Shown piece after piece: positions 9,583 through 57,944 of a stretch of 64,000 bases of DNA. The stretch's first letter is position 1, and every line of letters begins with the position of its first letter. Source of the DNA: Clostridiales bacterium. Its GTDB lineage: Bacteria > Bacillota > Clostridia > Lachnospirales > Lachnospiraceae. The stretch lies in NCBI GenBank assembly GCA_021201535.1, contig JAJQEU010000109.1, forward strand, positions 1,998 to 65,997, given 5' to 3'. The notes under the pieces were generated by a model, which saw only the letters and a list, made by a program, of their open reading frames with translations, made no database searches and was not told the DNA's origin. The position numbers and the translations under genes were made by a program.

Positions 9583-9606
9583 GCCTTCATCATGCCTTCT
9601 GAATTT

Positions 9607-13497: not shown

Positions 13498-13524
13498 GTA
13501 ACTGTGAAGATACTGAACCGCTAC
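13498..13524 (+). repeat. 27-bp REP-like repeat, copy 2
   Basis: GTAACTGTGAAGATACTGAACCGCTAC, 31 nt upstream of the mttB-family ATG. Confidence 0.75.
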
Positions 13525-13555
13525 GAATCAAACACTGAAAGGACACCATAGCATC

Positions 13556-14989: not shown

Positions 14990-15048
14990 GAAGTAAATTA
15001 TATCATTAGATATTTGTCCTGACGCAGAACGATGAAAGGGATATTTTC

Positions 15049-15363
15049 ATGAAATTGACAAGAGCAGAAAAAATATGGCTTGCAGCCGTCATTATCTTTT
15101 ACGCATGCTACAACCTGCCTTTTGTGCCGGCCTACGGCCACGCGAAGGCAACCCTGATCCACGGATTGATGACGCTGATCCCTCTGTGGATTTCCGTTTA
15201 TATCGGTCTGGTAAAGATATGCCGGATCTACCGCCTGCGCGATTCGCAGACACAAAAATCCTCCTCCGGTGCAGAAATGCCGATGCCGGAAACAGACCCA
15301 AAAACATCTCTGCCGACACAGACAACAGACAGAGAAATAACGAAGGAGGATATGTCATGTTAA
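15049..15363 (+). CDS. Small two-TM membrane protein, likely partner of the solute:sodium symporter
   Basis: Two hydrophobic helices then a polar tail; overlaps the symporter start by 7 nt. Confidence 0.65.
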   Translation: MKLTRAEKIWLAAVIIFYACYNLPFVPAYGHAKATLIHGLMTLIPLWISVYIGLVKICRIYRLRDSQTQKSSSGAEMPMPETDPKTSLPTQTTDREITKEDMSC

Positions 15364-16886
15364 AAAGCTCTACCGTATGGATTGCCTTCCTGTTATATCT
15401 CGCATTTCTTCTGATCGTTGCACTGACAGAGAATATGCGTTCAAAACAAAAAAACGCCCGTGGCTTTGCAACGGCGGGCGGCAGCATCAAATGGCCGATT
15501 CTGGTGATGACCTACATCGCCTCCCTGATGAGCACCTGGGTCTTCTTCGCCGGTCCCGGCGCGTACTACCGGGGCGGCATCGGATACTGGGCATCGGAGC
15601 TGAGCTACATCTGCCTGTTTCCCGTCGTCGTACACTTTGTCATGAACAAAGTATGGATCACAAACAGCACCCGGAAATACACAACCCCTGCTGACTTTTA
15701 CTATGACCGATTCAAAAGTCCGCTGCTGCGGGTACTTCTGGCACTCATTTTTCTGAGCGCGTCCTTCCCCTATATCGCCAGCGTCCTGATCGCCATCTCT
15801 AAAGCCGCAGAGATTGCCACGGGCGGCGCCATAGCATACCGGCAGGTCGTAATCATCGTCGGTGTTGTGATCATCGCCTATGTCATGATCGGCGGATTAA
15901 AATCCATTGCGCTGACAGACACCATCCAGGGACTTGCTTATATCTCCATCCTCTGGATCATTGTATTTGCCTGCCTGTTTACCGCCTTCGGCGGTTCTCT
16001 TGGAAACGCCGTATCCACCATCTGGGAAAACACCAATGAATGGTTCTCCTACCCCGGTCCGGACGGCTGGGTTCCCTACAGTGCACGCTTCGGATACCCC
16101 TTAAGCTGCGCCATCGGCTGGACCGTTATGCTGCCCCACGTGTTTATCCGCTCCGGATACTCCGGCTCGGATCTGAACACCCAGCGGAAGCTGATGTTTC
16201 TGACGCCGCTTCTGCAGGCTTTTGTCTGGACCGGAACCATGATGATCGGTCTGGTCAGCATCGCCCTGCTGCCCGGCCTCAGCACGGATGAGACGGAATA
16301 CATCATTCCCTACCTGATCCAGAATATCATTCAGAACATCCATCCGAATATGGCTGTCGTCCTGATGATCTTTTTCTTTGTCGGTGCCGTCGCAGTGGGA
16401 ATCTCCACCGCAGATTCCTTTCTGCTGGTCACCGGCTCCATCATCTCGGAGGATCTGCTGCATCACACCTTCGGGATAAAAATGGGCGAAAAAAAACAGC
16501 TGCTGTCCGTGCGGCTCGTCATCCTGGCGGTCGGACTGATCAGCATCCTGTTCGCCATCAACCCGCCGGATCTGATCTTCACACTGATCATGTTCGCCAT
16601 CGCCATCGTCATGCCGCTGTTCCCGATCCTGGTGCTCGGCATTTACTGGAAAAAAGCAACAAAACAGGCCGCCGTCGTTTCCACCATCGTGGGCACGGTG
16701 CTCGTACTGATGACTTATTTCGTGTGGGATCTGGGCGGGTCCTGGTACGGAGCATTCGGGCTCGCAGGTTCGCTCGTGTGTATGATCGTGGTGAGCCTGC
16801 TGACACATCAGGATCCGGAGGATTCCAGAAAATTTTACGAGGCGCTGGAAAGCGGAGAACGGAAATACTATGATATCCAACCATAA
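15357..16886 (+). CDS. Sodium:solute symporter (SSS) family
   Basis: About 13 TM helices; MSTWVFFAGPG.YYRGG, DFYYDRF.S, GGLKSIALTDTIQG and ISTADSFLL; GGAGG RBS before the ATG at 15357. Confidence 0.9.
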   Translation: MLKSSTVWIAFLLYLAFLLIVALTENMRSKQKNARGFATAGGSIKWPILVMTYIASLMSTWVFFAGPGAYYRGGIGYWASELSYICLFPVVVHFVMNKVWITNSTRKYTTPADFYYDRFKSPLLRVLLALIFLSASFPYIASVLIAISKAAEIATGGAIAYRQVVIIVGVVIIAYVMIGGLKSIALTDTIQGLAYISILWIIVFACLFTAFGGSLGNAVSTIWENTNEWFSYPGPDGWVPYSARFGYPLSCAIGWTVMLPHVFIRSGYSGSDLNTQRKLMFLTPLLQAFVWTGTMMIGLVSIALLPGLSTDETEYIIPYLIQNIIQNIHPNMAVVLMIFFFVGAVAVGISTADSFLLVTGSIISEDLLHHTFGIKMGEKKQLLSVRLVILAVGLISILFAINPPDLIFTLIMFAIAIVMPLFPILVLGIYWKKATKQAAVVSTIVGTVLVLMTYFVWDLGGSWYGAFGLAGSLVCMIVVSLLTHQDPEDSRKFYEALESGERKYYDIQP

Positions 16887-16945
16887 TCAGGGAAATTCCC
16901 CGTAACTGTGAAAACACTGAACAGTTTATGGGGAATTTCCCTGAT
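16886..16945. terminator. Long hairpin between convergent genes with REP copy 3 in its loop
   Basis: 16-bp perfect inverted repeat ATCAGGGAAATTCCCC / GGGGAATTTCCCTGAT enclosing GTAACTGTGAAAACACTGAACAGTTTA (16902-16928). Confidence 0.75.
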
Positions 16946-17616
16946 CACTCCAGACAGTAAAGAGAACTGTCGCAAACGGCATCCGAACTGCCGGTCAAAA
17001 CCATCCAGAATCCATCCCGAAAGGGAATCTCCCGCTGCATAACCGGCAGTTCATCCACCACAGAAAAATAATCCAGTCCGTCTTTTAAGCCGACGCCGGT
17101 GTATTTGACATAACTCTCTTTATATGCCCACAATCTGCTGAACGCATCAAATCCGTGCTGTTCCAGCCATCGTATTTCAGAGGGATGGAAAAATCTCCGT
17201 GCCAGCTTCTCACCGTCCCCCGTGTGACAGGTCTGCAGATCCAGACCGACCTCTGCATCACTGACCGCACAAACCCAGACATCGCCGCTGTGTGAGATAG
17301 AAAAATGTACCTCCGGCAGTTCTTTCACATACGGCTTACCCTGTCCTTCCCGCTCAGCGGCCTCTGAAATACCTTCCGGATGACGGAATTCTCCCGTATA
17401 CGATCTGTCCGCATCTTCCCGGCGGCAAACGGTAATTTCTTTGATTTCCCGCCCGATATATCGGCTGATCGCCAGTCTCAGCAGCTCATGAGATTCGATT
17501 TTTTTGTCCCAGTCACAATAATATATAATCACTCTCATTATTTGCACGTTCGCCGACATATCCGATACAGTATCTCTCAGTTCATATCCGGAAAGAAACA
17601 GGATAGAAAACCGCAT
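16945..17616 (-). CDS. 4'-phosphopantetheinyl transferase (Sfp-type); start may be at 17538
   Basis: GKPY, HFSISHSG, VGLDLQ and W..KESYVKYTG.G motifs. Confidence 0.88.
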   Translation of the reverse strand: MRFSILFLSGYELRDTVSDMSANVQIMRVIIYYCDWDKKIESHELLRLAISRYIGREIKEITVCRREDADRSYTGEFRHPEGISEAAEREGQGKPYVKELPEVHFSISHSGDVWVCAVSDAEVGLDLQTCHTGDGEKLARRFFHPSEIRWLEQHGFDAFSRLWAYKESYVKYTGVGLKDGLDYFSVVDELPVMQREIPFRDGFWMVLTGSSDAVCDSSLYCLE

Positions 17617-44788: not shown

Positions 44789-45496
44789 ATGTCAGATTCA
44801 CAGAGCACCCATACCATCTCCACCGATTTCATGGACTGTTTTCTGACGCTCTCCCGGGGCAGCAAACGTCTGGAAGCATTAGGACAGCCTGAATTTTTGA
44901 AAAAGGGAACCATTCTCGTCCGTTCCGGTGAAATCCCCGGATATTGCTATATTGTCCGGACGGGACGCGTCATCTGTTATGAGTTCTCCTTCAACGGAGA
45001 GCAGCGGATCTACAATTTTATGGAACCCGGTTCCCTGCTTCTGGAGGAGTTTCTGCTGTTTGACAGACCGTGTCCGATTTTTTTCGCGACAGCGCTGGAT
45101 TCCGAGTTGGTAAAAATCACGAAACAGGATCTGACCGACGCGCTGCGGCGGGATTTTGATATCGTCATGGACGTCTGCGAATCCATCTCCGCCAAACACC
45201 TTTCCGCGATGGAATACCAGCGCGTAGGGTACCATCAGGATGCGGGCTGGCAAATCTGCCGTTTTCTCCTGCTTCTGATCGAGCATTACGGGGAAAAAGA
45301 GAATGGCCGGATACAGATAACGGAAAAGTTTTCCCATCAGATGATCGCCGATTTTCTGGGCATGAACCGCGTTACGGTCAGCCGAAAGCTGAAGGAGCTC
45401 CGCTCTCTCGGCCTGATTGCCTCTGAAAAGGGGAAACTCAGTGTTCCGGACGTCAACGCTATCAAAAAGTACATGGACTCTATTCAGGGATTTTAG
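44789..45496 (+). CDS. Crp/Fnr family regulator
   Basis: cNMP-binding barrel (CYIVRTGRV...GEQRI) and HTH SHQMIADFLGMNRVTVSRKL. Confidence 0.92.
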   Translation: MSDSQSTHTISTDFMDCFLTLSRGSKRLEALGQPEFLKKGTILVRSGEIPGYCYIVRTGRVICYEFSFNGEQRIYNFMEPGSLLLEEFLLFDRPCPIFFATALDSELVKITKQDLTDALRRDFDIVMDVCESISAKHLSAMEYQRVGYHQDAGWQICRFLLLLIEHYGEKENGRIQITEKFSHQMIADFLGMNRVTVSRKLKELRSLGLIASEKGKLSVPDVNAIKKYMDSIQGF

Positions 45497-45511
45497 GAAG
45501 GAACTGCCGTC

Positions 45512-46222
45512 ATGAAAAATCCAAACTACGTAAAACCTGTCAGTTTGTGGAATTCCTCCCGGATTCTTTCGCCGGACTTTATTCTGCCCTGTCTGGAAAA
45601 GCTTGGTTCTGCGAAAAAAGTTCCGAAAAACACTTATATTTACCGTTCCGAGGAGATTCCGGACTGCTGCTATATCGTAAAAAGCGGGGAGGTCATCGCT
45701 TTGGAGACGACCTCCGGTGGAAATGAGTTCCTCCATTTCCTTATGGACGAAAACGCCATATTCGGGGACGTCAATATGCTGATGGAAAAACCTCTGCCCA
45801 TCCGCTTCCGCACAGCGACGGACTGCGAGTTAATCTGCATCCCGAAGGAAAAACTGATGACGGCGATCGCACAGGATTCCCGCATTTTCATGGAACTGTA
45901 TCTCTCCGCCGCCAACAAGTTTCTGGATTCCATAGAAGAGCTGAGGGAATTTAAGCTCTATCCGGCATCCTGGCGTCTGATTAAGATGCTTCTTACTTTC
46001 GCGGACAAATACGGAACGGATTACGACGGAAAGCTCCTCATCCGACGCAAACTGAGCATCAACTATCTGACCGCCCTCATCGGCGTCAACCGCGCCACCA
46101 CTATCCGGTCGCTGAACGGCCTGAAAAAAGAGAAGCTGATTGAAACCGTCAACGGCTTCTACTGCATCCGGGATCCGGAAGCCCTCAAAAGATATCAGGC
46201 TCGCCTTGCCGAGGATCTGTAG
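45512..46222 (+). CDS. Crp/Fnr family regulator (tandem paralog)
   Basis: CYIVKSGEV...IFGD and HTH LTALIGVNRATTIRSL. Confidence 0.92.
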   Translation: MKNPNYVKPVSLWNSSRILSPDFILPCLEKLGSAKKVPKNTYIYRSEEIPDCCYIVKSGEVIALETTSGGNEFLHFLMDENAIFGDVNMLMEKPLPIRFRTATDCELICIPKEKLMTAIAQDSRIFMELYLSAANKFLDSIEELREFKLYPASWRLIKMLLTFADKYGTDYDGKLLIRRKLSINYLTALIGVNRATTIRSLNGLKKEKLIETVNGFYCIRDPEALKRYQARLAEDL

Positions 46223-46254: not shown

Positions 46255-47373
46255 TTATTTTTCGGCAGTACTGACCGCGTGCGTCAATATAAATTCCCTT
46301 GCTTTGTCCCGGATCAGCTGCGCCTCCAGCGCATCCCGATCCAACGTCCGGCAAACCTCATCAAAATCCGCCGCGCACTGCTCTGCAATCCGCTCCATTG
46401 CCTGAAATACCTCCGGCTCGCCGACCCGGATCCCCTCGCGATCCGCCACCGCCGTAAACAGCACATCAAACAACGCCGCATCCCTGGCCTGATCCCTGTG
46501 TTCATCTCTCCACTGCTTTTCACTGAGTTCCATCGACCCAAGCCGGGTTTCAAACATCTCGTCACAAATTTCATCGTTGCTCATGGACGACTTTAAGTGT
46601 GCCCTCTTTGTCTGAATCTCACGCAGCTTCTGATCAAAATCCGCCGGAAGGTCATGATAACGCCTGACGCACTCTTTCACCCCTGCAAGAAAACAGTCGA
46701 TTTCTATTCCCTGTTGGTCTGCCGAGACAGACTGAAGCATATAATCCATGGCTTCCGCGCGAACCTGAGACATCGGCCGGTGTACATCCGCCGCGTGATA
46801 CGCCTCTCGCAGCAGATAAACACATTCTGTCAACATACGGCACACCGGATCCTGCACGGCAGCTGCTTTTTCCCGTGCCTCCATGGCATCCAGGCGGGCT
46901 TCCGTCATCGAATCCGGCAGGACGGTTTTCATATTTCTGCAGGCTTTCGTCAGCACGTCCGCCGCAAATCTCTCCTCATCATCCCGCGGCACATCGGTCC
47001 GGATCCCTTTATAGGGACCTAATGTCGCATCCGGATATACATCCGCTTCCACAAGAAAACGGACGCCTCCGTCCCCACGCCAGGTTATCTCCCGCAGACA
47101 GGGTTTCCCTACGGGATGAAGACGCGTTTCCCTCACGTACTGCCGGTACGCTGCGGGAATGCACAGATCGAGTGCTTCGTCATAAAGGACCCGCGGTCCG
47201 TATATTTTTTCGATTTCCTCCCGCGGCGCCAGTCCCGGTGCGTATCCGGGCACAACGATTCTATCCGTATGTTCCAGATACGCGTCATGGAGCGCCTTCG
47301 CGAACTCCTCCGGCTCCAGAATCAGCTCCGTTGTGATCGCGCCGTCCTTCCTCTCCTCGTGTTCTGCTCTCAT
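46255..47373 (-). CDS. Atypical trigger-factor-like protein (N and C domains, no FKBP domain)
   Basis: Tig N-domain pattern (VPG..PG.AP..EIEKIYG...YDEA...LGPYKG) joined to a Tig C-domain pattern (LPDSM.E...D.M; LF.AVADREGI.V.E). Confidence 0.75.
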   Translation of the reverse strand: MRAEHEERKDGAITTELILEPEEFAKALHDAYLEHTDRIVVPGYAPGLAPREEIEKIYGPRVLYDEALDLCIPAAYRQYVRETRLHPVGKPCLREITWRGDGGVRFLVEADVYPDATLGPYKGIRTDVPRDDEERFAADVLTKACRNMKTVLPDSMTEARLDAMEAREKAAAVQDPVCRMLTECVYLLREAYHAADVHRPMSQVRAEAMDYMLQSVSADQQGIEIDCFLAGVKECVRRYHDLPADFDQKLREIQTKRAHLKSSMSNDEICDEMFETRLGSMELSEKQWRDEHRDQARDAALFDVLFTAVADREGIRVGEPEVFQAMERIAEQCAADFDEVCRTLDRDALEAQLIRDKAREFILTHAVSTAEK

Positions 47374-47388
47374 ATCCGCCCTCCGATC

Positions 47389-48039
47389 CTACAGAATCAC
47401 CTTCGTTTCCGTACCGATCCCTCTCAGAACAGACATAAGGATGGCGGCGTCGTGCTCCTGCGCGTACTTTTCAAGGATATCCCGAAATGTTTTTTCCTCA
47501 TCCTCCTCCCGCGCCAGAGCGCCCAGTTCTATCAGATCCGCCCCGTAGCCGCTCATTTCGTCCAGCTTTTTCAAAAGCTCATCTTCCTCCGGCATGCGAT
47601 CCGGATAAATCCAGGTCAACACCGACTTCCGGTTATAATTGGCCGCCTCAAAAAGAATCGACCGTGTCGCATCCTCATAGGGGAGCAGCGGTGCGCTGAT
47701 CAGATCCGTGCCCTGCTTTGCCGCCTGCACAGCCAGCCTGGCGATATACATATATTTTGCCGGGTGTTTTCCCCCGATCACCGCATCCCGGAAGCTGAAC
47801 ATCAACGGTTTTTCTTTCGCCGCCTCCCGCACCGCTTTCAGTGCGGACGGCACCTCCTTAAAGGTAATCTCAAAGATATCGTCATGCTCGTCGCTGCGCC
47901 ACTCGATCGCCGCCACAGCCGGGTCGGCCGCCAGCGCTTCTGTCTGTGCGATGATATCTTTCCTGGAAGCCGCTTTCACGATACCGATGGCTGCTCCCGC
48001 TGTCAATTCTGTCCGGTTGATTTTAATTGTTCTGCTCAT
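47389..48039 (-). CDS. Type I 3-dehydroquinate dehydratase (AroD)-like protein, catalytic residues absent
   Basis: IEWRSD, PLMFSFR...GG and GADL.E.; His and Schiff-base Lys positions substituted; C-terminus short. Confidence 0.7.
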   Translation of the reverse strand: MSRTIKINRTELTAGAAIGIVKAASRKDIIAQTEALAADPAVAAIEWRSDEHDDIFEITFKEVPSALKAVREAAKEKPLMFSFRDAVIGGKHPAKYMYIARLAVQAAKQGTDLISAPLLPYEDATRSILFEAANYNRKSVLTWIYPDRMPEEDELLKKLDEMSGYGADLIELGALAREEDEEKTFRDILEKYAQEHDAAILMSVLRGIGTETKVIL

Positions 48040-48419
48040 TTCCCTGTTTCTTCCTTTCCCTCTGTACCAGATCTTTTTTTAAAAATCGCCGCTACGTTTC
48101 TTCCATATTTAAATTCATAAGAGATCTCATCCATCCTCGCATGCGTACAGGGACTCCGGTCATCCCGGACGGGATTATATAATCCTCCGGCATGCACAAA
48201 CTGCAGACCGACGCCCTCCGTGGACAGGCTGGCGGACACGGTCAGCATGCCCTCTCCCCTGTCCGCGCCGCAGATATTTAAAAACAATTCCAGCGCGGAG
48301 GCCGTAACCGCTTCCTTCCACTCGCCGGAAAATCCGGAATCCGCGTCGCCAAGGCACCGCAGATACTCTTCAAACCACGGCAGGTTCTCCCGCGCCGGAA
48401 CAATGGCCAGCTTTTCCAC
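48036..48419 (-). CDS. Degenerate RsbW/anti-sigma HATPase-like small protein
   Basis: GTG start overlapping the upstream TAG, GGAGGTG RBS; ELFLN N-box and MDEISYEFKYGRN tail. Confidence 0.55.
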   Translation of the reverse strand: MEKLAIVPARENLPWFEEYLRCLGDADSGFSGEWKEAVTASALELFLNICGADRGEGMLTVSASLSTEGVGLQFVHAGGLYNPVRDDRSPCTHARMDEISYEFKYGRNVAAIFKKRSGTEGKEETGK

Positions 48420-48850
48420 TAGCGGATCACCTCCACTTCCTCCTCCTGTCTGGAACACAGAAAAGCCTCGTGCCCTTCCTCCAGCTCGCGAACATCCGCC
48501 TCCCGCAGATCCGCTCCGGTCAGCAGCATTTCCTCGACACGCGCCAGAAGCTCCAGCCGGTTTTTGTCTTCCGGAGATGCGTAAAACAGCGACATCCGGC
48601 TGATCGCTCCAAACCGGTTGATTTCCCTCGACAGATGAGGAAGAAGTGCCAGTTCCGTGAGCGAAAGCTCCCATGGGTCGCCCACGGGCCGATCTTCCGT
48701 CTGTCCGGCCGCAGGCAAAGGGTGAAACACGCACGTCACCCCGCCGCTGGTATACTCCTCGCCCATGACCGCCTGAAGCTTTCCGTACTCTTCCCGGATA
48801 TAAAAATCCCGTTCTTCACGAATCAAATCCCGGATTTTATCTCTGTCCAT
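48419..48850 (-). CDS. Hypothetical protein (143 aa)
   Basis: Overlaps both neighbours, GGAGG RBS; no motif recognised. Confidence 0.65.
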   Translation of the reverse strand: MDRDKIRDLIREERDFYIREEYGKLQAVMGEEYTSGGVTCVFHPLPAAGQTEDRPVGDPWELSLTELALLPHLSREINRFGAISRMSLFYASPEDKNRLELLARVEEMLLTGADLREADVRELEEGHEAFLCSRQEEEVEVIR

Positions 48851-50384
48851 ATCTTCCCTCCCTGTCAAATCCATCTAAGTCCAATTGTTCCAGACGGGCG
48901 ATCCTGTCTGTGATACTCTTTTTTCGCTCCTCAAACTGCAGTTCCCTGTTATACGTATAATATTTTTCACATCCGTAATGTCCGATAAACCGTGCGCAGT
49001 AATAGTTCGCCGTGAGCTCGGTCACAAGAATCAGCATCTCATCGCCGTCCGAAAAAGCTTTTTCACAAAAATCAAATGTATTTTGGAGAATCCGCTGCGC
49101 TTCCTCCACCTCGCTCCGCAGAGAAAACAGGGTATCGTCATAGGTCTCCCGGATGATCGTAAAATCGTCCTCACCGGCGTTCTTTTTTAATATCTTTTCC
49201 CGGTACAACTCGAGCTGCGCGGCAACGCGGCGGGTTTCCTTTTGCTTTTCAGGGGACAGGGATGAGGATGCCCTGCCCTTCGCAATCTCCTCCCTCATTT
49301 CCCCGCAGTATTTTTCCAACAGCTCTGCTGCGGGAGCACCGTCCGCAATCTCCGGCCCAATCTGCCGAACCAGCCTGACCAGACGGGCGAGCATATCCTC
49401 CGTGTCGCAGATGCCTCTCATTTTCGTCGTAACCGCCCCAAAGATAATTCCCAGAAGAGAAAACCTCTCGTCTATTTTAGCCGTCGAAGCCCGCGCGACA
49501 ATATCCTCGGAAACCGTTCCGTCCAGGATCGCGTCGATTTTATAATCGCTCCGGTATTTGTGGTACAGGTCATAATAAATAGCAAAATCCCTGGCGATCT
49601 TCGGATCCTGCAGATACTGGCAGACCAGCCTGTCGTTGACGACCAGCCCGTTTTCTTCATACAGCTTTATCATCTCCGAGAGATCCTCCCAGCTTCGCGC
49701 GGTCACAAAAGTTTTGCCGTCCACAGTACTTTGAACCCGGTAAAAATCATCCGTTTTCGCGTAAAGATACGTCATGACCGCCGGATGTACGCCGTTCCTG
49801 TAAGCATAATCCTTCCAGACCTCATAATCCGGCTCCACATCGATCCGTTTCAGGCGATCCCACGTGACAATATCAAAATCCCGAACCGATTTATTATACT
49901 CGGGCGGGTTTCCCGCAGTCACTACGATCCACCCCTCCGGCAGCCTGTGCTGTCCGAAGATCTTAAACTGCAGAAACTGCAGCATACAGGGCGCGAGCGT
50001 CTCGGAAATGCAGTTGATCTCGTCCAGGAAAAGAATCCCCTCCGTGATGCCGGTATCCCGCATCAGGTCATAGACCGATCCGATGATCTCGCTCATGGTG
50101 TACTCGGAAACCTGATACGTCTTTCCGCCGTACTCTTTTTCCACAATATAGGGAAGGCCCAGGGCGCTCTGTCTGGTATGGTGCGTCATGGAATAGGAGA
50201 TCAGACCCACGCCCAGCTCCGAGGCAATCTGCCGCATGACGGCCGTTTTTCCGATTCCGGGCGGACCGATCAGAAACACCGGCCGCTGTTTTTCCGTGGG
50301 GATTTTATAACATCCGAATTCATCCTTCGTCAGATAAGCTTTCAGCGCTCCCCGGATCTGTTCTTTTGCCTCAGCGATATTCAT
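48837..50384 (-). CDS. MoxR-type AAA+ ATPase with a long helical C-terminus
   Basis: GPPGIGKT, LFLDEIN, AGNP and WDRL. Confidence 0.88.
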   Translation of the reverse strand: MNIAEAKEQIRGALKAYLTKDEFGCYKIPTEKQRPVFLIGPPGIGKTAVMRQIASELGVGLISYSMTHHTRQSALGLPYIVEKEYGGKTYQVSEYTMSEIIGSVYDLMRDTGITEGILFLDEINCISETLAPCMLQFLQFKIFGQHRLPEGWIVVTAGNPPEYNKSVRDFDIVTWDRLKRIDVEPDYEVWKDYAYRNGVHPAVMTYLYAKTDDFYRVQSTVDGKTFVTARSWEDLSEMIKLYEENGLVVNDRLVCQYLQDPKIARDFAIYYDLYHKYRSDYKIDAILDGTVSEDIVARASTAKIDERFSLLGIIFGAVTTKMRGICDTEDMLARLVRLVRQIGPEIADGAPAAELLEKYCGEMREEIAKGRASSSLSPEKQKETRRVAAQLELYREKILKKNAGEDDFTIIRETYDDTLFSLRSEVEEAQRILQNTFDFCEKAFSDGDEMLILVTELTANYYCARFIGHYGCEKYYTYNRELQFEERKKSITDRIARLEQLDLDGFDREGRYGQR

Positions 50385-50415
50385 TGCGCTCCTCCTGAAA
50401 ATCAATTACTGCCGG

Positions 50416-50526
50416 CCATCCCGGTGTTTCCTCTCTGATGAAAAACATGACCGTCCCGGCGTTTTTTACTCCGATGAAAAAGATAGCCGTCCCGGCGTTT
50501 CTGCTCAGATGGCAAACATAGCCATC
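50416..50526. repeat. Degenerate ~35-bp tandem triplication overlapping the LRR gene stop
   Basis: Units at 50416, 50451 and 50487: CCRTCCCGGYGTTT...GATG..AAA.AT.. Confidence 0.7.
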
Positions 50527-52379
50527 ACATCAATTTCGCTGCCGGAAGCTTTTCTGTGTTCCAGCAGCGCAGCGACCATCTCCATCTTCTTTTCCCGCTG
50601 GGCGCGTTCCAGCATATTCGTAAAAAGCTCCGTCCCAATCGCAAAATGTCCGGAAATATACGTCGCGGCGTCCGGCAGATTTCCCGTGACCACGGCGGAC
50701 AGGGTCTTTTCCAAATGGCTTCGGATGTATTCCCGGTACCCGGCGGCGATTCCATCCGTATATCGATCCGCGGCGCGGCAGTATCCGATGGCGGCAAAAA
50801 TCTGATCTTCCTCATCGAACTCCCCGATCGCCATTCCCGGAGCCGTGACGGAGATCAGGCTGTGGCATTGCGAAAACGGCTTTTCATGCAGCTCGCCTAC
50901 CGTCCGCGGCAGTTCGATCTCCTGCAGTGACTCCATGCCGGTAAAGGCGCGGGGACCGATTTTCTCCACGCTTTCCGGAACATATATAAACCGGATCTCC
51001 TTTTTGCCGGAAAAAGCGCCGCCCAGGATCTCCCGGATTCCTTCCGTCAGACGAAGTTCAGAACCCCGGGCGCACAGGCCGACGCATGCGCCGTCCGCCA
51101 CGACAAATCCATTCGCGTCCGCCAGCGCCGTACAACCGTCAAAACAGCCCTCGCCCAGTTCCGATATCCCGACCGGAACGGAAATCCCGACAAGACCTGC
51201 GCAGCCGGAAAATACACGCGCCCCCATATGCTCCAGAGAATCCGGCAAACGTATCCGCGCCAGCGAACGGCATTGCCCGAACGCCCCGGTTTGAAGCGAA
51301 CAGACACCGTCGGCGATATCCACCCGCTCAAGAGCCACGCACTGGGAAAACGCATCCTCCGGCACCTCCGAAACCGACGCAGGAACAGACACCTCCGTAA
51401 TGCTTCTCAGTCCCGAAAAGGCGCTTTCTCCGATAAATTCCAGGCCGTCCGGCAGCTTCAGCTCCCGGATACATCTGCAAAGGCAGAATGCCCTCCTTTC
51501 GATCCGCTTTACCGTATCAGGAATGGAAATCTTCTCGAGAGAAATACACTCATAAAAAGCGTCGATCCCGATCCGTTCCAGCCCCTCCTCCAGATTAATC
51601 CGGCTCAGATTACTGCAGCCGGAGAACGCCCAGTCTCCGATTGCCTCCACCGGTCCGTTAAACTTCACGTCGACCAGCGCGCTGCAGCCGAAAAACATCC
51701 ATCCGCGAAGCGTTTTCAGGGATGCGGGAAATTCAATCCGGTGCAGTCCCCTGCAGCCGGAGAACGCGCCTCCCTCAATCTCCTCGATCCCGTTTTCAAA
51801 GGATATGTCAGCCAGGCGCTTGCAATCCTTAAAACAGCGCCATCCGATCCGCCGGACGCTCCCGGGGATATGGATCCGGGTCAGGCCGGAGCATTCCCGG
51901 AAAGCCCTCCATCCAATCCGCAAAAGTGTACCGGGCAGTGTTATCTCATCCAGAAGGATCCTCTCCGCGAATGCGTCCGCGCTGATCTCCTCCACGCCGG
52001 CCGGCACCGACGCTCTGCGTATATTGCGCCTTGCCTTCAAAAGACACCGGCCGAGAATCAGGAAATCCTCCTGCCATTCGTTTTCATTTTCGCTGTAATA
52101 CTTATAATACGGAGTTCCCTTAAAGGCGTCATTCCCGATATGGCAAAGCGTCTGCGGAGCCCGGACTGCTTGCAGGTTATCACACCAGAGAAACGCCTCG
52201 TCCTCTACAGATTCTACGCCCTCCGGGATCACAATCTCCCGCAGGGAACGGCAGTTCTGAAACGCTTTCTCCCCAATCGTGCGCACGCCGTCCGGAAGCG
52301 TAAGATACGGCTCCTGTCCGCGGTACTTTACCAGCACCCCGTCTGTTATCTCAAAAGCATTCTCATCATCACGGTTCAT
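50505..52379 (-). CDS. BspA-type (LRR_5) leucine-rich repeat protein without a signal peptide
   Basis: About 20 repeats of LxxIxIPxxVxxIGxxAFxxC; N-terminal DGVLVKYRG cap. Confidence 0.92.
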   Translation of the reverse strand: MNRDDENAFEITDGVLVKYRGQEPYLTLPDGVRTIGEKAFQNCRSLREIVIPEGVESVEDEAFLWCDNLQAVRAPQTLCHIGNDAFKGTPYYKYYSENENEWQEDFLILGRCLLKARRNIRRASVPAGVEEISADAFAERILLDEITLPGTLLRIGWRAFRECSGLTRIHIPGSVRRIGWRCFKDCKRLADISFENGIEEIEGGAFSGCRGLHRIEFPASLKTLRGWMFFGCSALVDVKFNGPVEAIGDWAFSGCSNLSRINLEEGLERIGIDAFYECISLEKISIPDTVKRIERRAFCLCRCIRELKLPDGLEFIGESAFSGLRSITEVSVPASVSEVPEDAFSQCVALERVDIADGVCSLQTGAFGQCRSLARIRLPDSLEHMGARVFSGCAGLVGISVPVGISELGEGCFDGCTALADANGFVVADGACVGLCARGSELRLTEGIREILGGAFSGKKEIRFIYVPESVEKIGPRAFTGMESLQEIELPRTVGELHEKPFSQCHSLISVTAPGMAIGEFDEEDQIFAAIGYCRAADRYTDGIAAGYREYIRSHLEKTLSAVVTGNLPDAATYISGHFAIGTELFTNMLERAQREKKMEMVAALLEHRKASGSEIDVMAMFAI

Positions 52380-52438
52380 ACGAACACCTCTTACCAGCTG
52401 TTACAGCGCTCGGTTGCGCGATACCCTGATACATATGA

Positions 52439-54040
52439 TTAAGACGATAAACTGTCCTCCCGCAGCACAACCTTCATTGCCCAGTGCGGAACCTCGGGCG
52501 TTTCTCGCCCCGTATCCAGAAACACAAACGCCGTGTCATATTTCGGCGGCATGGCCGGATAAGTTCCATAGCCGTCCGTAAAATAAATCATCCCCCGCAG
52601 ATTGGAAAATTCATGGCGGCGGAGCAGCCCGTCGACATATGTGAACACCGGACGGAAATCCGTTCCTCCGAAGCCCTTTAAGCTCATACCCTCCATATAT
52701 CGGTCAAACTCTTCCTGCGAAGTGATTTTCTGATCCTCCTCCACCCGCGCGCCGCACTGTATGATATGCACATTGACCGTAGTGAAAAAATTTTCACTCT
52801 GTTTCATGATATTCCAGGTCTTTGCGACAAACGCCTGCACGACCTCGCCGGCGACGGACTGGGATGTATCCAGTGCGATCACAAACTCCCGCACCTTTCG
52901 GACCTCTTTGGACTCCAACGGTTCGATCAGTGGCATCCTTCCGTACCGTTTCATCGCCCAGGTATACAAAATGGGGTCAAATTCATCGTCGTTGACCTCG
53001 ATATTCTCCCCGAGAACGGAAAACTTTCTCAGAAATTCAGCGTAATCGTATCTCTCCCGGCTGATCTCCCGCAGCGCCTGTATCAGATTGCCGTCGGAAC
53101 TGCCCCAGGTATCCGGCATGGTATCCAGTTCTACCCGGATCCGCTCCGAAATCTCCTGCCACCGGCGTTTTAATTCCTCCGGCGACAGCGCCTGCCGATC
53201 CTTTATTTCATCTTTCCGGTTTTCGTCGGAGGGCAGGCCTCCTGTGTCTGTCGAATCCTTTTTCTCTCCCGCGGGATTCCCGCCGGCGGCGTCCGTCTGC
53301 GGGGCATCCTCCGCGTCCGGTTCCGGCGGTCCGGCGCCGCCCGGGCTATCCGCGTCGCCCGTCTCCGGCGGCGTTTCCTTCGCGTCCTCCGTCCGGTCAG
53401 AGCGTTTCCCTTCGTCGGAACTGTCCGGCGCGGATGGTTCTCCGTACCAGAATTCATGGTCGTCCGCGTAAAAATACTCCCGCAGCCGTGTCATCTCGCT
53501 TTTTTCCAGCCCGGACTCTTTGAAATGCCGGTAGATCCGCTCCGCGGTCAGGGCGGGCAGCTCATCCTTTAACCGGACGATCAGCCACTGCTGCCGCTCC
53601 TGGCGTTCACAGAAAAATGTCTTCACATTCTGCTCCGCGATGATGTTTTCCACCATAATATCACAGGAGAGATCCCAGAGCTCCCGGTCAATCTTCGCGT
53701 CCACAAACAGATGGCGAAACACACAGTGGAGAACCAGATGCAGATAATTCCGGTTCACGATCGCCGGCGACCGCTGAAACTGTCTGCACAGGTAATCCGA
53801 ATGATAGAACAGGCTTCTCCCGTCCGTAGCAATCTCCGGTGTCGCGCTCTCTTCCCCGAACCGGATCTCAAGCAATGCCGATTCCAGAAAACGGAAATTC
53901 AGCAGGATAGTATTGCGGGAAAGGCGCAGAATATCCTTCGACAGGTCCGAAGCTTCCCGCCGCCTCCTCATATCGTCTAAGTCAGCATAATGTCCGTCGA
54001 AAGTCCGAGCATATTTCGGCAGCTGATCCGCAGTCTCCAT
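52439..54040 (-). CDS. DUF2201-type metallopeptidase-like and VWA domain protein
   Basis: ATDG...Y, HLVLHCVFRH, acidic linker, MIDAS LDTSQS, GGTDFRPVF and YFTDGYG. Confidence 0.88.
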   Translation of the reverse strand: METADQLPKYARTFDGHYADLDDMRRRREASDLSKDILRLSRNTILLNFRFLESALLEIRFGEESATPEIATDGRSLFYHSDYLCRQFQRSPAIVNRNYLHLVLHCVFRHLFVDAKIDRELWDLSCDIMVENIIAEQNVKTFFCERQERQQWLIVRLKDELPALTAERIYRHFKESGLEKSEMTRLREYFYADDHEFWYGEPSAPDSSDEGKRSDRTEDAKETPPETGDADSPGGAGPPEPDAEDAPQTDAAGGNPAGEKKDSTDTGGLPSDENRKDEIKDRQALSPEELKRRWQEISERIRVELDTMPDTWGSSDGNLIQALREISRERYDYAEFLRKFSVLGENIEVNDDEFDPILYTWAMKRYGRMPLIEPLESKEVRKVREFVIALDTSQSVAGEVVQAFVAKTWNIMKQSENFFTTVNVHIIQCGARVEEDQKITSQEEFDRYMEGMSLKGFGGTDFRPVFTYVDGLLRRHEFSNLRGMIYFTDGYGTYPAMPPKYDTAFVFLDTGRETPEVPHWAMKVVLREDSLSS

Positions 54041-54120
54041 CGCAGCCTCCTATTCCGAACCGGTGTGGTTATTCCCGCTCCGGCAACTGATTCGCAATCT
54101 CTGTCGCAGCCTCCAGTTCC

Positions 54121-56559
54121 TTAATCCCGCTCCGGCAGCGGCGGCATCGTATCAAACTTCTGTCTCAGATCCTCCGCTCCGAATTCAGTCTTTCCCGTTT
54201 TTTCATTTTCACGAAGCGCTCTCCACAGGCGTTCCGGCGTAATCGGAAGCTCCCGAAGCGTCAGGCCGGTCGCGTAGTTGATCGCGTTGCCGATCGCCGA
54301 ACCGACCGGTGCGGTACTTCCCTCGCCCGCCTCCTTCGCCCCAAGCGGTCCTTCCGGATCGTATTCGCTGCAGATAAAGGTCCTGATATTCGGCATATCC
54401 AGAGCCGTCGGGAAACGGTAATCACGAAAGCTCGGATTTAAGTGCCGACCCTCGCTGCTGTACTGGCACTCCTCATAACAGGTAAAACCGAAACCGAGCA
54501 GTACGGAACCTTCGATCTGCCCCTCCACCGCGCGGATATTCAGCGGCCTTCCGCAGTCATGCCCGAACGCGAAATCGTCAAGCGAAACCTGTCCGGTCTC
54601 CTTATCCACCGTAACCTTCGCCGCCGATGCGGAGAAAGAATACGCGGTCGCGTAGTTTCCTACATTTTTCACATAAATATCCTTGTCGCCCTCATGCGCG
54701 AACGAACCCACGCCCACGACGCAGCGTCCGAAGTTTTTCTCCTCATATCCGAACAGCGCCTCATTGTAAGAAATATTCTTTTCCGGGTCGCCCTTGATAA
54801 AGACGCGGTGGTCCTTCATGGTAATGTCGGAGGGTTTGCACCCCCACTCCTCTGCCCAGTGGGAAAGCAGCTTGAACTTTGCGTCTCCCACCGCCCGGTG
54901 GCAGGCGTTTCCGCCGAGGAAAGTCACACGGGAGCCGAAGGAACCCGCATCCCACGGCGTCGTCGTCGTGTCGGACTGCACACACTTAACCTCGTCCATC
55001 CGGAGCCCCAGCTCCTCCGCCACGATCATCGTCATCACCGTATCGCATCCCTGCCCGATGTCGTTGGCGCCGGTAAATACAACCGCGTATCCCTCACGGT
55101 TCAGCCTGACGATCGTGGAAGCCGAACAGTAATGGGGCGTTACCAGTACGGGGAACCCGGTGCCGGACATGAATCCGGAGCCCGACAATCCCACGCCCTC
55201 CCCGCTTCCGAGCGGATACCGCCACCTGTGTTCCCAGTCGATCGCATCAGCAACCGCCGTCAGGCACTCGTCAAATTTACAGGAGGTAAATTCCAGACCG
55301 GTAGGGCCGGTATAATACGGCGTAATCTCATTATCACGGCGCAGCTTCAGCGGATCGATGCCAAGGGAATTCGCCACCTCATCCATGTGTATCTCATGGG
55401 CGAAATGTACCTGACACGCCGAATAACCTCTCATGGCGCCGGAAGCGGGGTGGTTGGTGTATGGCCTCCGCGCCGTCATGTCGATGTTTTCCACCTTGTA
55501 GGGAAAGGTCGCGCAGATCAGCGAAAGGGTATTGGCCGCAATGCCGGATCCTCCGTAGGCTCCCCCGTCCAGGATATGCTTGCAGCGTTTTGCCAGAAGC
55601 TTTCCTTCCTTTGTGAAAGCGCTCTCAATCTCAAAGGAAATGGGATGTCTGGTTCTTGTACACATAAATACCTCATCCCGCTTTAAAATGCACTTGACCG
55701 GATGGCCGGTCATCTGTGCGAACTTGCACGGGCAGAGCTCATGGGCGAATGCGTCCAGCTTTCCGCCGAACCCGCCGCCGATCATCGGCTTGATCAGATG
55801 CACCTGGCTCTCCGGCACACCAAGCCCCCAGGCAATCCAGTAACGGCTGACATAAGCGCCCTGCGTCGTCGTCCAGATCGTATATTCCCCATTCTCGTAC
55901 TTTGCGATCGCCCCGTGCGGCTCAATCGCCGCGTGAACCATCTCCTGCGTCTTATAATAATGCTTATCCGTGTAATAGGCTTCCTCAAACACCCGGTCCG
56001 GCTCTCCCGCCTTCATGGTGGTAAAAATAGAGAGATTACCCGTCCCCGGATAATGGATCGCCGGAGCGTCCGGCTGCATGGAGTAAAACGGATCCAGCAC
56101 CGGTTCCAGCGGTTCGTATTCTACCTTTACCAGCGCCGCCGCCTCCGTGGCGGCCTCCTCCGTCGTGGCGCAGACCGCGGCGACCTCGTCGCCGGCCATA
56201 CGGACCTTTTTACGGCACAGCGGCTCCTTGTCCGCCAGCTCCTTGAAAGCCTCAGGGTTCCCCAGGTTGTGTCCCTCCGGGAAATCCTTTCCGGTAAGCG
56301 TCGCCTTTACCCCCGGCACCTTCAGCGCTTCCGTGAAATCAATGCTTTTGATGAGCGCATGGGCGTAGGGGCTGTGTACCAGCTTACAATACCATGTGCC
56401 GGGCAGATCCACGTCGTCCGTATAGACCGCGGAGCCGGTTACCTTTGCCTCCGCGTCGATCCTGATATACGCGTTTCCCCTGCCTGCCAGTTCATAATCC
56501 TCGGGATCCTTGTATACGCTCTCTACATCCGCGTAATATTCTTTCGCCATAACCGCCAT
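54121..56559 (-). CDS. Xanthine-oxidase-family molybdopterin-binding large subunit (HcrA/CoxL-like)
   Basis: AKVTG...Y.DD, HAAIEPH, TTTQ, GGGFGGK, GAMRG, DIGQG, SRVTF.GGNA, EGQIEG and GAKEAGE; TAATG coupling to the 2Fe-2S gene. Confidence 0.93.
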   Translation of the reverse strand: MAVMAKEYYADVESVYKDPEDYELAGRGNAYIRIDAEAKVTGSAVYTDDVDLPGTWYCKLVHSPYAHALIKSIDFTEALKVPGVKATLTGKDFPEGHNLGNPEAFKELADKEPLCRKKVRMAGDEVAAVCATTEEAATEAAALVKVEYEPLEPVLDPFYSMQPDAPAIHYPGTGNLSIFTTMKAGEPDRVFEEAYYTDKHYYKTQEMVHAAIEPHGAIAKYENGEYTIWTTTQGAYVSRYWIAWGLGVPESQVHLIKPMIGGGFGGKLDAFAHELCPCKFAQMTGHPVKCILKRDEVFMCTRTRHPISFEIESAFTKEGKLLAKRCKHILDGGAYGGSGIAANTLSLICATFPYKVENIDMTARRPYTNHPASGAMRGYSACQVHFAHEIHMDEVANSLGIDPLKLRRDNEITPYYTGPTGLEFTSCKFDECLTAVADAIDWEHRWRYPLGSGEGVGLSGSGFMSGTGFPVLVTPHYCSASTIVRLNREGYAVVFTGANDIGQGCDTVMTMIVAEELGLRMDEVKCVQSDTTTTPWDAGSFGSRVTFLGGNACHRAVGDAKFKLLSHWAEEWGCKPSDITMKDHRVFIKGDPEKNISYNEALFGYEEKNFGRCVVGVGSFAHEGDKDIYVKNVGNYATAYSFSASAAKVTVDKETGQVSLDDFAFGHDCGRPLNIRAVEGQIEGSVLLGFGFTCYEECQYSSEGRHLNPSFRDYRFPTALDMPNIRTFICSEYDPEGPLGAKEAGEGSTAPVGSAIGNAINYATGLTLRELPITPERLWRALRENEKTGKTEFGAEDLRQKFDTMPPLPERD

Positions 56560-57041
56560 TATGCACGCACCTCCCTCGCCAAAACCTTCGCCGCGGCGTC
56601 GATTGCCTCCACGATCTTCGCATAGCCTGTACATCTGCACAGGTTGCCCGCGATACCGTCCCTGATCTCCTGCTCCGTGGGATGCGGATTTTCATGCAGC
56701 AGAGATAACGCGGACATGATCATGCCCGGTGTACAGAAGCCGCACTGCAGCGCCCACTTATCCATAAATTCTTTCTGCACCGGATGCAGCACTCCGTCCT
56801 TTTTGACACCTTCGATCGTCACGACCTCATGGCCGTCCGCCTCCACGGCAAGCATCATGCAGGAATCAATCGCCGCCCCGTCCAGGAGAATGGTGCACGC
56901 GCCGCATTCTCCTTCCTCGCAGCCTCTTTTCGTACCTGTCAGATGCATCTGTTTCCGGAGGAAATCCACCATGGTAAGCCCGTCGGCGACCAGCTCCTCC
57001 ACATCCTCTCCATTAAGTTTAAAGCTAATGATATGTTTCAC
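56559..57041 (-). CDS. 2x[2Fe-2S] small subunit (CoxS/XdhC-type ferredoxin subunit)
   Basis: GCEEGECGACT, QCGFCTPG and GNLCRCTGY. Confidence 0.96.
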   Translation of the reverse strand: MKHIISFKLNGEDVEELVADGLTMVDFLRKQMHLTGTKRGCEEGECGACTILLDGAAIDSCMMLAVEADGHEVVTIEGVKKDGVLHPVQKEFMDKWALQCGFCTPGMIMSALSLLHENPHPTEQEIRDGIAGNLCRCTGYAKIVEAIDAAAKVLAREVRA

Positions 57042-57056
57042 GCTGATTCCTCCTTC

Positions 57057-57944
57057 CTACACTTTCCGCGTCGCGACCGCTTCTTTTATGGCACGCTTTG
57101 TATAGACGCGCACCATATCCGCCCGGTACTCCGCGGATGCCCGGACGTCGGAAATGGGCTTCGCCTCTCCCATGGCCAGCCGGCCGGCTTCCTCCAGCGT
57201 CTCCTCAGTGATCTCTCTGCCTTTTAAGAACTCCTCCGCCTGACAGGCGCGCAGGGGAGTGATCCCGACGCCTCCCATGGCGATTCTCACATCTGCAACC
57301 GTTTTTTTATCCATCCGGATCCACGCCGCCACTCCGATAATCGCCAGATCCATCGCCTTCCTCACAGAATGCTTAAAATAAGCGGATCCCTCACCGGACT
57401 TTAACGCCGATATCAGAATCTCCGTCACAATCTCCCCGCCGTTTTTATCCAGGCAGGTCTTTTTGACGCCCTTGAAAAATTCTCCGATCGGGATGATCCT
57501 GCCGCCTCCCGGACGGTAAGTGGAAACCTCCGCGTTCATCGCCAGTAAAATCGAAGCGGTATCCGCGGACGGCGATGCGTTGCAGATATTTCCCGCCATG
57601 GTTCCCTTGCGGCGGATCTGAGCGGAAGCCACATAATGCGCCGCCTGAGAAACCGCGGGCATCTTTTCCCTGACAAGGTCAGATGTCTGGATGGCGAACA
57701 GCTTTGTGTTCGCGCCGACCCTTAGCCCTCTCCCTTCTTCAAATTCCAGCGTATCCAGCCCCGGGATCCCCTTGATATCGACCACAGAATCCACATCCTT
57801 TAAGACACGCTCTTTCAGCAAGATGATCACGTCCGTCCCGCCGGACATAAGAATCGCGCGCGGACCAAGCTCTGTCATTTTCGCAGAGGCTTCCTCCAGA
57901 CTTCGGACCGCGTAATAATCAATTGCCGGTAAAGCCATACTCAT
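57057..57944 (-). CDS. FAD-binding medium subunit (CoxM-type)
   Basis: GGTDV, ASAQIRRKGTMAGNICNASPSAD and ISDVRASAEYR; no [4Fe-4S] Cys insert. Confidence 0.94.
   Translation of the reverse strand: MSMALPAIDYYAVRSLEEASAKMTELGPRAILMSGGTDVIILLKERVLKDVDSVVDIKGIPGLDTLEFEEGRGLRVGANTKLFAIQTSDLVREKMPAVSQAAHYVASAQIRRKGTMAGNICNASPSADTASILLAMNAEVSTYRPGGGRIIPIGEFFKGVKKTCLDKNGGEIVTEILISALKSGEGSAYFKHSVRKAMDLAIIGVAAWIRMDKKTVADVRIAMGGVGITPLRACQAEEFLKGREITEETLEEAGRLAMGEAKPISDVRASAEYRADMVRVYTKRAIKEAVATRKV

Follow-up and report, generated by a model that had tools for sequence, protein, structure and literature searches.

A VWA–LRR–AAA gene trio kept in a molybdenum hydroxylase operon of Clostridia, and its stand-alone relatives

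Introduction

What is the task of three genes for a von Willebrand factor A (VWA) protein, a leucine-rich repeat (LRR) protein and an AAA+ ATPase that lie directly behind the genes of a molybdenum (Mo) hydroxylase? The question is raised by a stretch of 64,000 nucleotides from a Clostridiales bacterium of the family Lachnospiraceae (GenBank assembly GCA_021201535.1, contig JAJQEU010000109.1, positions 1,998 to 65,997 of the forward strand), referred to below as the window. Few AAA+ chaperones are as poorly understood as the pairs of a MoxR ATPase and a VWA protein, and the way in which these pairs select their clients is an open question. In Oligotropha carboxidovorans the pair CoxD/CoxE matures the metal site of a xanthine-oxidase-family enzyme, the aerobic CO dehydrogenase (PMC4240915, PMC3471820), and the pair NorQ/NorD acts on the metal site of NO reductase (PMC9976466). 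A first-pass annotation, made from the letters of the window, had seen in the LRR protein the client-recognition module of such a pair, with either the Mo enzyme as the client or the trio as an independent defence or remodelling system embedded in the operon.

With middling confidence, and by analogy with these pairs, we propose that the trio is a MoxR-VWA remodelling cassette in which the LRR protein would be the target-binding third subunit, the most likely target being the adjacent Mo hydroxylase or an assembly intermediate of it.

Results

The trio was found where the first-pass annotation had placed it, and its features are as follows.

48837-54040, minus strand: VWA–LRR–AAA trio, three adjacent open reading frames (ORFs) directly 3' of the Mo subunit gene
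52439..54040, minus strand: putative VWA adaptor protein, 533 aa, with DUF2201_N, an acidic linker and a DUF2201 VWA domain with metal-ion-dependent adhesion site (MIDAS)
50505..52379, minus strand: cytoplasmic BspA-type LRR_5 protein, 624 aa (Pfam LRR_5, E 4e-137)
48837..50384, minus strand: AAA+ ATPase of the AAA_5/MoxR class, 515 aa (Pfam AAA_5 and AAA)

Homologs were surveyed by searching with the VWA protein and then reading the gene contexts, with a VWA profile run over 185,579 species genomes and the Mo subunit run over metagenomes, and all loci were annotated by BLAST against the proteins of the window. As lower bounds, the family has at least 376 species-level genomic matches and more than 7,800 VWA relatives among 8,000 scored candidates. 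All 41 distinct operons that carry FAD, Mo, VWA, LRR and AAA genes have the order FAD-Fer2-Mo-VWA-LRR-AAA-small protein-(small protein 2)-(dehydroquinase-like)-trigger-factor-like. Down to a VWA identity of about 48% to the protein of the window, this order holds at all loci, provided that the contig reaches far enough, and it is seen again in a more distant locus (L041) with a VWA identity of 44%. The operons come from Lachnospiraceae, Oscillospiraceae, Anaerovoracaceae (including the cultured Anaerovorax odorimutans), Mogibacterium, Gracilibacteraceae and others, and their LRR proteins are collinear one-to-one orthologs with 36-93% identity, the C-terminal helical domain and tail included.

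The first-pass annotation had named two things that would speak against its view, an LRR gene not kept between the VWA and MoxR genes and a secreted LRR protein, and neither was seen in any homologous Mo operon. The gene of an LRR surface protein could in principle have been inserted into an unrelated VWA/AAA pair, making the three genes chance neighbours or an annotation artefact, as gut Clostridia have BspA-type LRR_5 proteins in very large numbers and usually secrete them. However, at every Mo-linked locus the gene between VWA and AAA is that of the same LRR ortholog, and the LRR partners examined lack a signal peptide and have a family-specific helical domain and tail in common. We find chance juxtaposition hardly credible and reject it, together with a secreted LRR protein, on the grounds of synteny, the lack of signal peptides and the shared helical domain and tail.

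Synonymous divergence was similar among the operon genes in each pair compared, and the genes of the operon therefore share one history. In comparison with locus L009, omega (the ratio of nonsynonymous to synonymous divergence) was 0.01 for the Mo and Fer2 genes, 0.10 for FAD, 0.125 for VWA, 0.16 for LRR and 0.175 for AAA, values by which the VWA, LRR and AAA proteins are all under purifying selection. The variability of the LRR protein, which the first-pass annotation had thought worth checking, was assessed in this ortholog comparison, and the protein was not hypervariable. Pairwise identities across the 41 operons followed those of the Mo subunit (Spearman rho 0.80 for VWA, 0.73 for LRR, 0.61 for AAA and 0.64 for FAD), and as judged from these correlations the trio has co-diverged stably with the Mo enzyme over a long time.

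The enzyme genes, identified from Pfam, NCBIfam and the gene calls in the homologous locus L001, are the following.

54121..57944, minus strand: Mo hydroxylase structural genes, directly upstream of the trio
57057-57944, minus strand: FAD subunit
56559-57041, minus strand: 2Fe-2S subunit
54121-56559, minus strand: Mo subunit, 812 aa

The Mo subunit belongs to the xanthine-oxidase family. Its best NCBIfam score was obtained with the 4-hydroxybenzoyl-CoA reductase alpha model, at 596 bits and below the cut-off of 995, and the nearest solved structure is 1rm6, the alpha subunit of the same reductase (375 bits). The subunit is extraordinarily conserved, with about 75-100% identity across bacterial families and an omega of about 0.01, whereas the FAD subunit of these operons has just 50-96% identity and the accessory genes average 36-68%. 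Since synonymous sites are saturated, the conservation of the Mo subunit reflects selection and not recent transfer. One homologous operon (L006, 1-3502) adjoins a MobA/MobL relaxase, a nucleotidyltransferase and a serine recombinase, and these neighbours suggest that the whole operon can sit on a mobilisable element. An identity with the urolithin dehydroxylases (ucd/uxd) was also considered; the papers on ucd/uxd mention no such accessory genes, and we therefore rejected the idea that the operon is that system.

The features within the VWA protein are given below.

53711..53740, minus strand: degenerate zincin motif H101-L-V-L-H105-C-V-F-R-H110 (25-ortholog alignment)
53186..53440, minus strand: acidic Pro/Gly/Ser/Thr-rich low-complexity linker, residues about 201-285 (~85 residues)
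52574..52870, minus strand: MIDAS residues D391-x-S393-x-S395 (52856-52870), T460 (52661-52663) and D489 (52574-52576)

Pfam assigned the protein to DUF2201_N (E 1e-9) and to the VWA-like DUF2201 (E 5e-11), both above the gathering scores, and NCBIfam gave no match at the E-value cut-off used. The N-terminal domain is helical and has three invariant histidines: H101, H105 and H110 are kept in all 25 VWA orthologs, and in all of them the Glu of HExxH is replaced. The protein thus reads HLVLH where a zincin-like metallopeptidase has its catalytic HExxH, as the first-pass annotation had observed, and the trait is not special to this gene, since a motif search found HExxH in just 2 of about 84 family members; loss of the Glu with the three His retained is family-wide. 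The MIDAS, which had been described earlier as intact (DTSQS, T, D), is invariant in the 25 orthologs (D391-T-S393-Q-S395, T460, D489), and its motifs were found in 84 of 84 family members by motif search. The AlphaFold2 (AF2) model has a mean predicted local distance difference test score (pLDDT) of 59, with 72-89 in the VWA part, below 50 in the linker and low confidence in the N-terminal fold. Foldseek matched the model with probability 1.0 to integrin I-domains, complement C2, TFIIH p44 and Rpn10, and the protein has both marks of a VWA domain, the Rossmann-like fold and the residues DxSxS, T and D. The linker is variable and gap-rich in the ortholog alignment, with a pLDDT of 25-34. We take this acidic, Pro-rich segment before the VWA domain to resemble that of BchD.

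The LRR protein starts with three LRR blocks that all begin with a beta-hairpin (residues 9-19, 106-116 and 425-435), and a helical bundle and a tail come after them.

51699..51911, minus strand: Trp ladder W157, W180, W227 (IGW/IGW/GGW) in three LRR repeats, the first two consecutive
50544..50837, minus strand: C-terminal helical bundle, residues about 515-612, six helices (AF2 helices 523-612)
50508..50543, minus strand: flexible C-terminal tail, residues 613-624 (...SEIDVMAMFAI-COOH)

An AF2 model built from a 4-sequence alignment reached a mean pLDDT of 89, and its top Foldseek matches were the LRR_5 structures 4fs7, 4gt6 and 4h09 from structural genomics. The N-terminus is acidic, the highest 19-residue hydropathy is 1.54, and searches for a signal peptide, a transmembrane segment and LPXTG found none of them. 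The protein therefore has the LRR_5 repeats of BspA-type surface proteins and neither their export signal nor a surface anchor, which bears out the earlier reading of a 624-aa LRR_5 protein without signal peptide and places it in the cytoplasm.

The Trp ladder is invariant in 22 Mo-linked LRR orthologs, and the number of IGW motifs per protein is 1.96 in Mo-linked LRRs versus 0.10 in the LRRs of stand-alone modules. The ladder is a candidate ligand-binding surface, and its restriction to this clade would fit one fixed, conserved ligand of the Mo-linked LRR protein. The helical bundle has no Pfam match. Starting near residue 611, the pLDDT of the tail is low (block means of 53 and 48) and drops below 50 at residues 614-616 and 621-624. 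The window's tail is a variant of the conserved motif [DE]-x-F-x-K-[YF]-x-[IL]-COOH, which most Mo-linked LRR tails resemble, and a looser acidic-hydrophobic C-terminal pattern was present in 35 of 40 distinct tails of Mo-linked orthologs. A homolog search with the full-length protein returned thousands of generic LRR_5 proteins, among which just two were of use, an ortholog (P0124) and an LRR::AAA chimera (P0121). With the C-terminal domain, a word-index search gave one match and an exhaustive phmmer search 28, mostly fragments, numbers that say little about the abundance of the domain. The chimera, an in-frame protein of 974 aa, has an LRR ortholog part that ends early in the helical domain and an ATPase part that begins at the SYSMTHHTRQ insert, so that Walker A is missing; rather than a functional fusion, the chimera is probably an allele with a deletion or an artefact of assembly.

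The ATPase exceeded the Pfam cut-offs of AAA_5 (34.1 bits versus 22) and AAA (35 versus 21.2) and matched the ATPase family phrog_1297 of PHROG (E 5e-42); NCBIfam gave sub-threshold P-loop matches only. It most likely starts at the ATG at 50384, giving 515 aa, as a GGAGG lies 6 nt upstream of this codon; the upstream TTG at 50405 is an unlikely start. Walker A (GPPGIGKT, G40-T47, 50244-50267), Walker B (D121/E122, 50019-50036), the sensor-1 residue N159, the Arg finger R177 (49854-49856) and the sensor-2 residue R230 are at least 98% conserved in 62 aligned family sequences. The AAA+ core (residues about 30-270) is almost invariant and contains an invariant insert, SYSMTHHTRQSALGLPY, after Walker A; the C-terminal half is helical, variable and poorly conserved. 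The best solved relative in sequence is midasin, in the P-loop region only. Of the first-pass description of a MoxR with intact Walker A/B and arginine finger, the motifs stand and the name does not: as the protein matches AAA_5 but not AAA_3, the accurate label by its domain matches is 'MoxR-class', not MoxR proper. Together with a VWA protein with complete MIDAS encoded in the same operon, one gene apart, it forms a MoxR-VWA type of pair.

Related modules occur outside the Mo operon. In 50 analysed loci with a VWA identity of 41-47% no Mo-enzyme operon was linked, with the exception of L087. There, at 3287-17081, a stand-alone-type VWA-AAA pair with an LRR gene lies on the opposite strand between two unrelated gene sets of the xanthine-oxidase family, whose Mo subunits are 26% and 53% identical to that of the window; this may be a second, independent association with molybdoenzymes. 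Neighbour clustering of the 50 stand-alone loci gave VWA in 50, AAA in 40 (the rest cut by contig ends) and LRR-type genes in 35, with every other family in at most 7. Among the stand-alone modules with complete flanks, 22 of 28 have between one and five genes for LRR or helical-domain proteins at a distance of at most two genes from the VWA+AAA pair, and in three of the six modules without an LRR another protein follows the AAA gene, with ankyrin repeats in one and DUF6273 in two (L061 13033-14676, L068 13061-14827, L072 13037-14746). The DUF6273 protein has a weak, sub-threshold zinc-ribbon match. The third component may thus not be restricted to LRRs.

The partners share more than their position. 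None of the 51 partner LRR ORFs examined has a signal-like N-terminus, and nearly all start like the window's protein (…DFxIxxGVLxKYxG…). A hidden Markov model of the helical domain of the window's LRR protein found this domain in most LRR partners of stand-alone modules, and it also matched short proteins between VWA and AAA for which BLAST gave no LRR match. A Phi-x-Phi C-terminus was present in 30 of 57 (53%) stand-alone third components compared with 13 of 374 (3%) control ORFs of the same loci (p=1.5e-20). On the shared neighbours, helical domain and tail, the unit is therefore a three-gene module of a VWA protein, an AAA protein and a cytoplasmic repeat protein with the signature helical domain and tail. 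No description of a VWA–LRR–AAA module was found in the searchable literature, and the cassette of the window belongs to a large, undescribed family of such modules. The first-pass comparison with ternary MoxR-VWA systems that have a repeat protein as third partner is fair as a structural description, given the 22 of 28 modules with LRR_5 and the three with ankyrin or DUF6273 proteins.

Tentatively, these modules could be seen as a widespread, undescribed class of MoxR-VWA ternary machines in anaerobic Firmicutes, in which interchangeable cytoplasmic repeat proteins would serve as plug-in target-recognition subunits that dock by helical bundle and Phi-x-Phi tail, with one clade specialised on a Mo hydroxylase. 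Most of these recognition subunits would be BspA-type LRRs, with an ankyrin-repeat or DUF6273 protein in a few modules, and the tail may be captured by the pseudo-peptidase domain of the VWA protein or by its MIDAS site. The same data can be read the other way round, with the LRR protein as substrate and not adaptor of the VWA-AAA pair, so that the motor would fold, oligomerise or disassemble LRR_5 proteins by pulling on the C-terminal tail, and the LRR protein of the Mo operon would be a scaffold or regulator whose state the motor controls. The conserved tail at the extreme C-terminus, predicted to be floppy, does resemble a recognition tag for an unfoldase or its adaptor, one VWA+AAA pair can serve several LRR paralogs, and outside the Mo clade the pair has no recurrent neighbour other than the LRR-helical protein. 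We still consider this unlikely: characterised MoxR-class ATPases remodel folded clients via VWA adaptors and do not thread tagged substrates (PMC9976466, PMC7159879), and the stable place in a metabolic operon would stay unexplained unless the LRR protein also binds the enzyme, in which case the explanation merges with the remodelling cassette proposed here.

A natural lineage has the operon without the trio. In five metagenome contigs (L109-L113) the FAD-Fer2-Mo genes are followed directly by small protein 1 (junction in L110, for example, at 11460-11662), with VWA, LRR and AAA all absent and the trigger-factor-like gene kept wherever the contig reaches that far. The frame-shifted L121 is probably trio-less as well. 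The trio was lost or gained as a block, and its joint absence in one lineage means that the three genes are one unit; loss is the more parsimonious reading because the deep branches (Mo identity 73-80%) carry the trio.

A self-contained function, in conflict, defence or otherwise, of a cassette merely resident in the operon and unrelated to the Mo enzyme would agree with this lineage, in which the Mo subunit is unchanged, and with the related VWA+AAA(+LRR) modules that stand alone in many unrelated settings, where the LRR paralogs number one to five and differ in size and position. The position of L006 beside a relaxase and a serine recombinase and the match of the AAA protein to bpMoxR, a family of the ternary conflict systems, point the same way, the latter with 21.9 bits and below the cut-off of 27. 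Against these stand the results of the searches for defence functions. With PADLOC the ATPase gave nothing beyond P-loop noise, and neither the VWA nor the LRR protein was matched; none of the three has an effector domain in Pfam, and the catalytic Glu is missing from the peptidase motif. What defines the MoxR-vWA ternary conflict systems in the literature is a VMAP, iSTAND, FtsH or beta-propeller partner together with effector domains (PMC7159879), and the trio has none of these four third components, no effector domain and no diversification, the LRR protein being under purifying selection and orthologous across families. Among 129 proteins flanking the stand-alone modules, no Pfam family occurred in more than three, and housekeeping genes such as those of EF-G, ribosomal L7/L12 and tRNA synthetases were included; the defence genes in these flanks were isolated, namely a single locus with Wadjet and type I restriction-modification and matches to UvrD-helicase and methyltransferase in at most two proteins each. 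The flanks of the stand-alone modules are not defence islands. Moreover, the long co-divergence of the trio with the enzyme genes is unlike the patchy turnover typical of defence genes. We thus regard an autonomous cassette as quite improbable, the first-pass idea of an independent defence system found no support in PADLOC, effector domains, LRR omega (about 0.16) or flanks, and the most likely function of the cassette is that of a machine for assembly or remodelling, not for defence. A phage origin was also considered and rejected: PHROG families match VWA and AAA, but the genuine phage homologs are distant and the closer 'phage' matches are short unannotated faecal contigs.

The trio lies within one tightly packed gene array on the minus strand at 46.2-61.7 kb, as judged by the ORF check with Pfam and NCBIfam identities. 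The order is MocA-like cytidylyltransferase, XdhC, TylF-type methyltransferase, histidine phosphatase, the FAD, 2Fe-2S and Mo subunits, the VWA–LRR–AAA trio, two small proteins, a dehydroquinase-like protein and a trigger-factor-like protein without a peptidyl-prolyl isomerase (PPIase) domain match; XdhC and MocA are thus encoded in the same operon as the trio. The conserved downstream genes, called from Pfam and the synteny of homologous loci, are listed here.

46255..48850, minus strand: conserved genes downstream of the trio
48419-48850, minus strand: small protein 1, without any family match
about 48036-48422, minus strand: small protein 2, without any family match
47389-48039, minus strand: type I dehydroquinase-like protein (Pfam)
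46255-47373, minus strand: trigger-factor-like protein, with Trigger_N and Trigger_C domains matched and the PPIase domain not

These downstream genes are coupled to the Mo gene more tightly than the trio is. The trigger-factor paralog is reminiscent of trigger-factor-like chaperones that are devoted to other redox enzymes, PceT among them. Each gene of the trio is preceded by a ribosome-binding site (AGGAGG 5 nt before the ATG of VWA, GAGGTG for LRR and GGAGG for AAA), and a search of the short spacers between them gave no strong terminator-like site. In the spacer before the VWA start, the end of the Mo gene and the next 27 nt are duplicated as a direct repeat (54030-54137), which makes the Mo–VWA spacer ~52 nt longer than in L001; the LRR–AAA spacer (50433-50500) has two 32-nt direct-repeat copies, 36 nt apart. 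The 14-nt core of the spacer repeat was looked for in the closest relatives and not found. An Rfam scan detected no riboswitch or other RNA in the operon, the sole Rfam match in the window being a Clostridiales-1 small RNA (RF01699, 123 bits) at 1736-1898 on the plus strand. Two tandem Crp/Fnr-type regulator genes (44789-46222, plus strand) lie divergently beside the operon end, and a Crp-type regulator is near the operon in most homologous loci, at varying positions.

Discussion

Is the Mo hydroxylase the client of the cassette? Linkage and the CoxD/CoxE precedent favour it, and the trio-less lineage is the main argument to the contrary. The Mo subunit of this lineage shares 96% identity with its counterpart in the nearest operons that carry the trio and gives no sign of relaxed constraint, with one change at otherwise conserved positions, compared with 1-5 in control clades, and its C-terminal tail is also unchanged. 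It follows that the trio can be dispensed with, is provided in trans, or does not have the Mo subunit as its target, and the existence of such a lineage argues against a strict need for it. In addition, about nine tenths of the genomic occurrences of the VWA family are stand-alone with no Mo enzyme nearby, and the module is therefore not intrinsically a Mo-enzyme factor. Domain models weigh on the same side, as the ATPase did not match the canonical MoxR model AAA_3 at E<=0.01 and the VWA protein had no match to VWA_CoxE in Pfam.

From the conserved features and the known pairs we infer as follows which proteins are in contact, how the tail docks and what the client is. A ring of the AAA_5-class ATPase would be the motor, and the VWA protein the adaptor whose MIDAS site links the motor to a peptide ligand. 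The catalytically dead zincin-like domain, with its three His retained, could plausibly clamp the conserved tail of the LRR protein, which as third subunit would dock by helical bundle and tail and hold the target on its repeat surface. Fixed in the operon of a 4-hydroxybenzoyl-CoA-reductase-like Mo hydroxylase, the cassette would help to assemble, mature or reactivate the enzyme.

If this is true, a separate, swappable repeat protein that binds the client would make client choice in MoxR-VWA systems directly testable. Part of the very large BspA/LRR_5 family of the gut, so far regarded as surface adhesins, would also gain an intracellular role as chaperone adaptors. In addition, the trio flags accessory genes that may be needed for heterologous expression of a highly conserved gut molybdoenzyme. 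For a related gut dehydroxylase, assembly in a foreign host was a practical obstacle, and active enzyme was not obtained in E. coli (PMC11760930).

Among known systems, CoxD/CoxE/CoxF has the same arrangement, with AAA+ and VWA/MIDAS genes directly downstream of the FAD, FeS and Mo genes, and the proposed role of CoxD/E is post-translational maturation of the folded enzyme. The window pair likewise lies directly 3' of xanthine-oxidase-family structural genes; however, neither Pfam nor NCBIfam gave a match that would indicate homology to CoxE (VWA_CoxE) or CoxD. Compared with CoxE, the VWA protein is a DUF2201 protein with a dead zincin-like N-domain; compared with CoxD, the ATPase is extended at its C-terminus by a helical part of 250 residues, and no transmembrane segment is predicted in it. 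An LRR subunit takes the place of CoxF, and the enzyme is 4-hydroxybenzoyl-CoA-reductase-like instead of a Cu-Mo CO dehydrogenase. NorQ/NorD, CbbQ/CbbO (Rubisco) and RavA/ViaA are similar in having a cytoplasmic motor and a MIDAS adaptor beside the client genes, with motifs intact (PMC9976466, PMC3893208), but these are two-component systems in which the VWA protein contacts the client, whereas the Mo-linked clade always has a separate repeat protein with a putative docking domain of its own.

A ternary logic of motor, VWA/MIDAS protein and substrate-holding third subunit is found in the AAA+ chelatases BchI/BchD/BchH and CobS/CobT/CobN (bioRxiv 10.64898/2026.07.21.739949). AAA matches to them were weak and below threshold (the CobS-like phrog_249, and Mg_chelatase for an ortholog), and in contrast to the chelatases the third subunit is an LRR solenoid and no CobN/BchH homolog, with no tetrapyrrole genes nearby. 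In the MoxR-vWA ternary conflict systems, too, an obligatory third protein is added to a MoxR-class ATPase and a vWA protein, and in the stand-alone relatives this third protein varies in number and length. The differences are the lack of VMAP, iSTAND, FtsH, beta-propeller and effector, the LRR protein of the Mo-linked clade, which is conserved and not diversifying, and the hosts, which are gut Clostridia and not the actinobacteria, cyanobacteria and other groups named in PMC7159879. With BspA-type surface proteins (4fs7, 4gt6, 4h09, PcpA 4cp6) the LRR protein shares the LRR_5 fold, but it has no signal or anchor and differs in its beta-hairpin start, six-helix bundle, conserved tail and operon link to VWA and AAA. 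The new element in this comparison is thus the type of third component, as a cytoplasmic LRR protein with a helical bundle and tail would be added to those of the MoxR-VWA systems.

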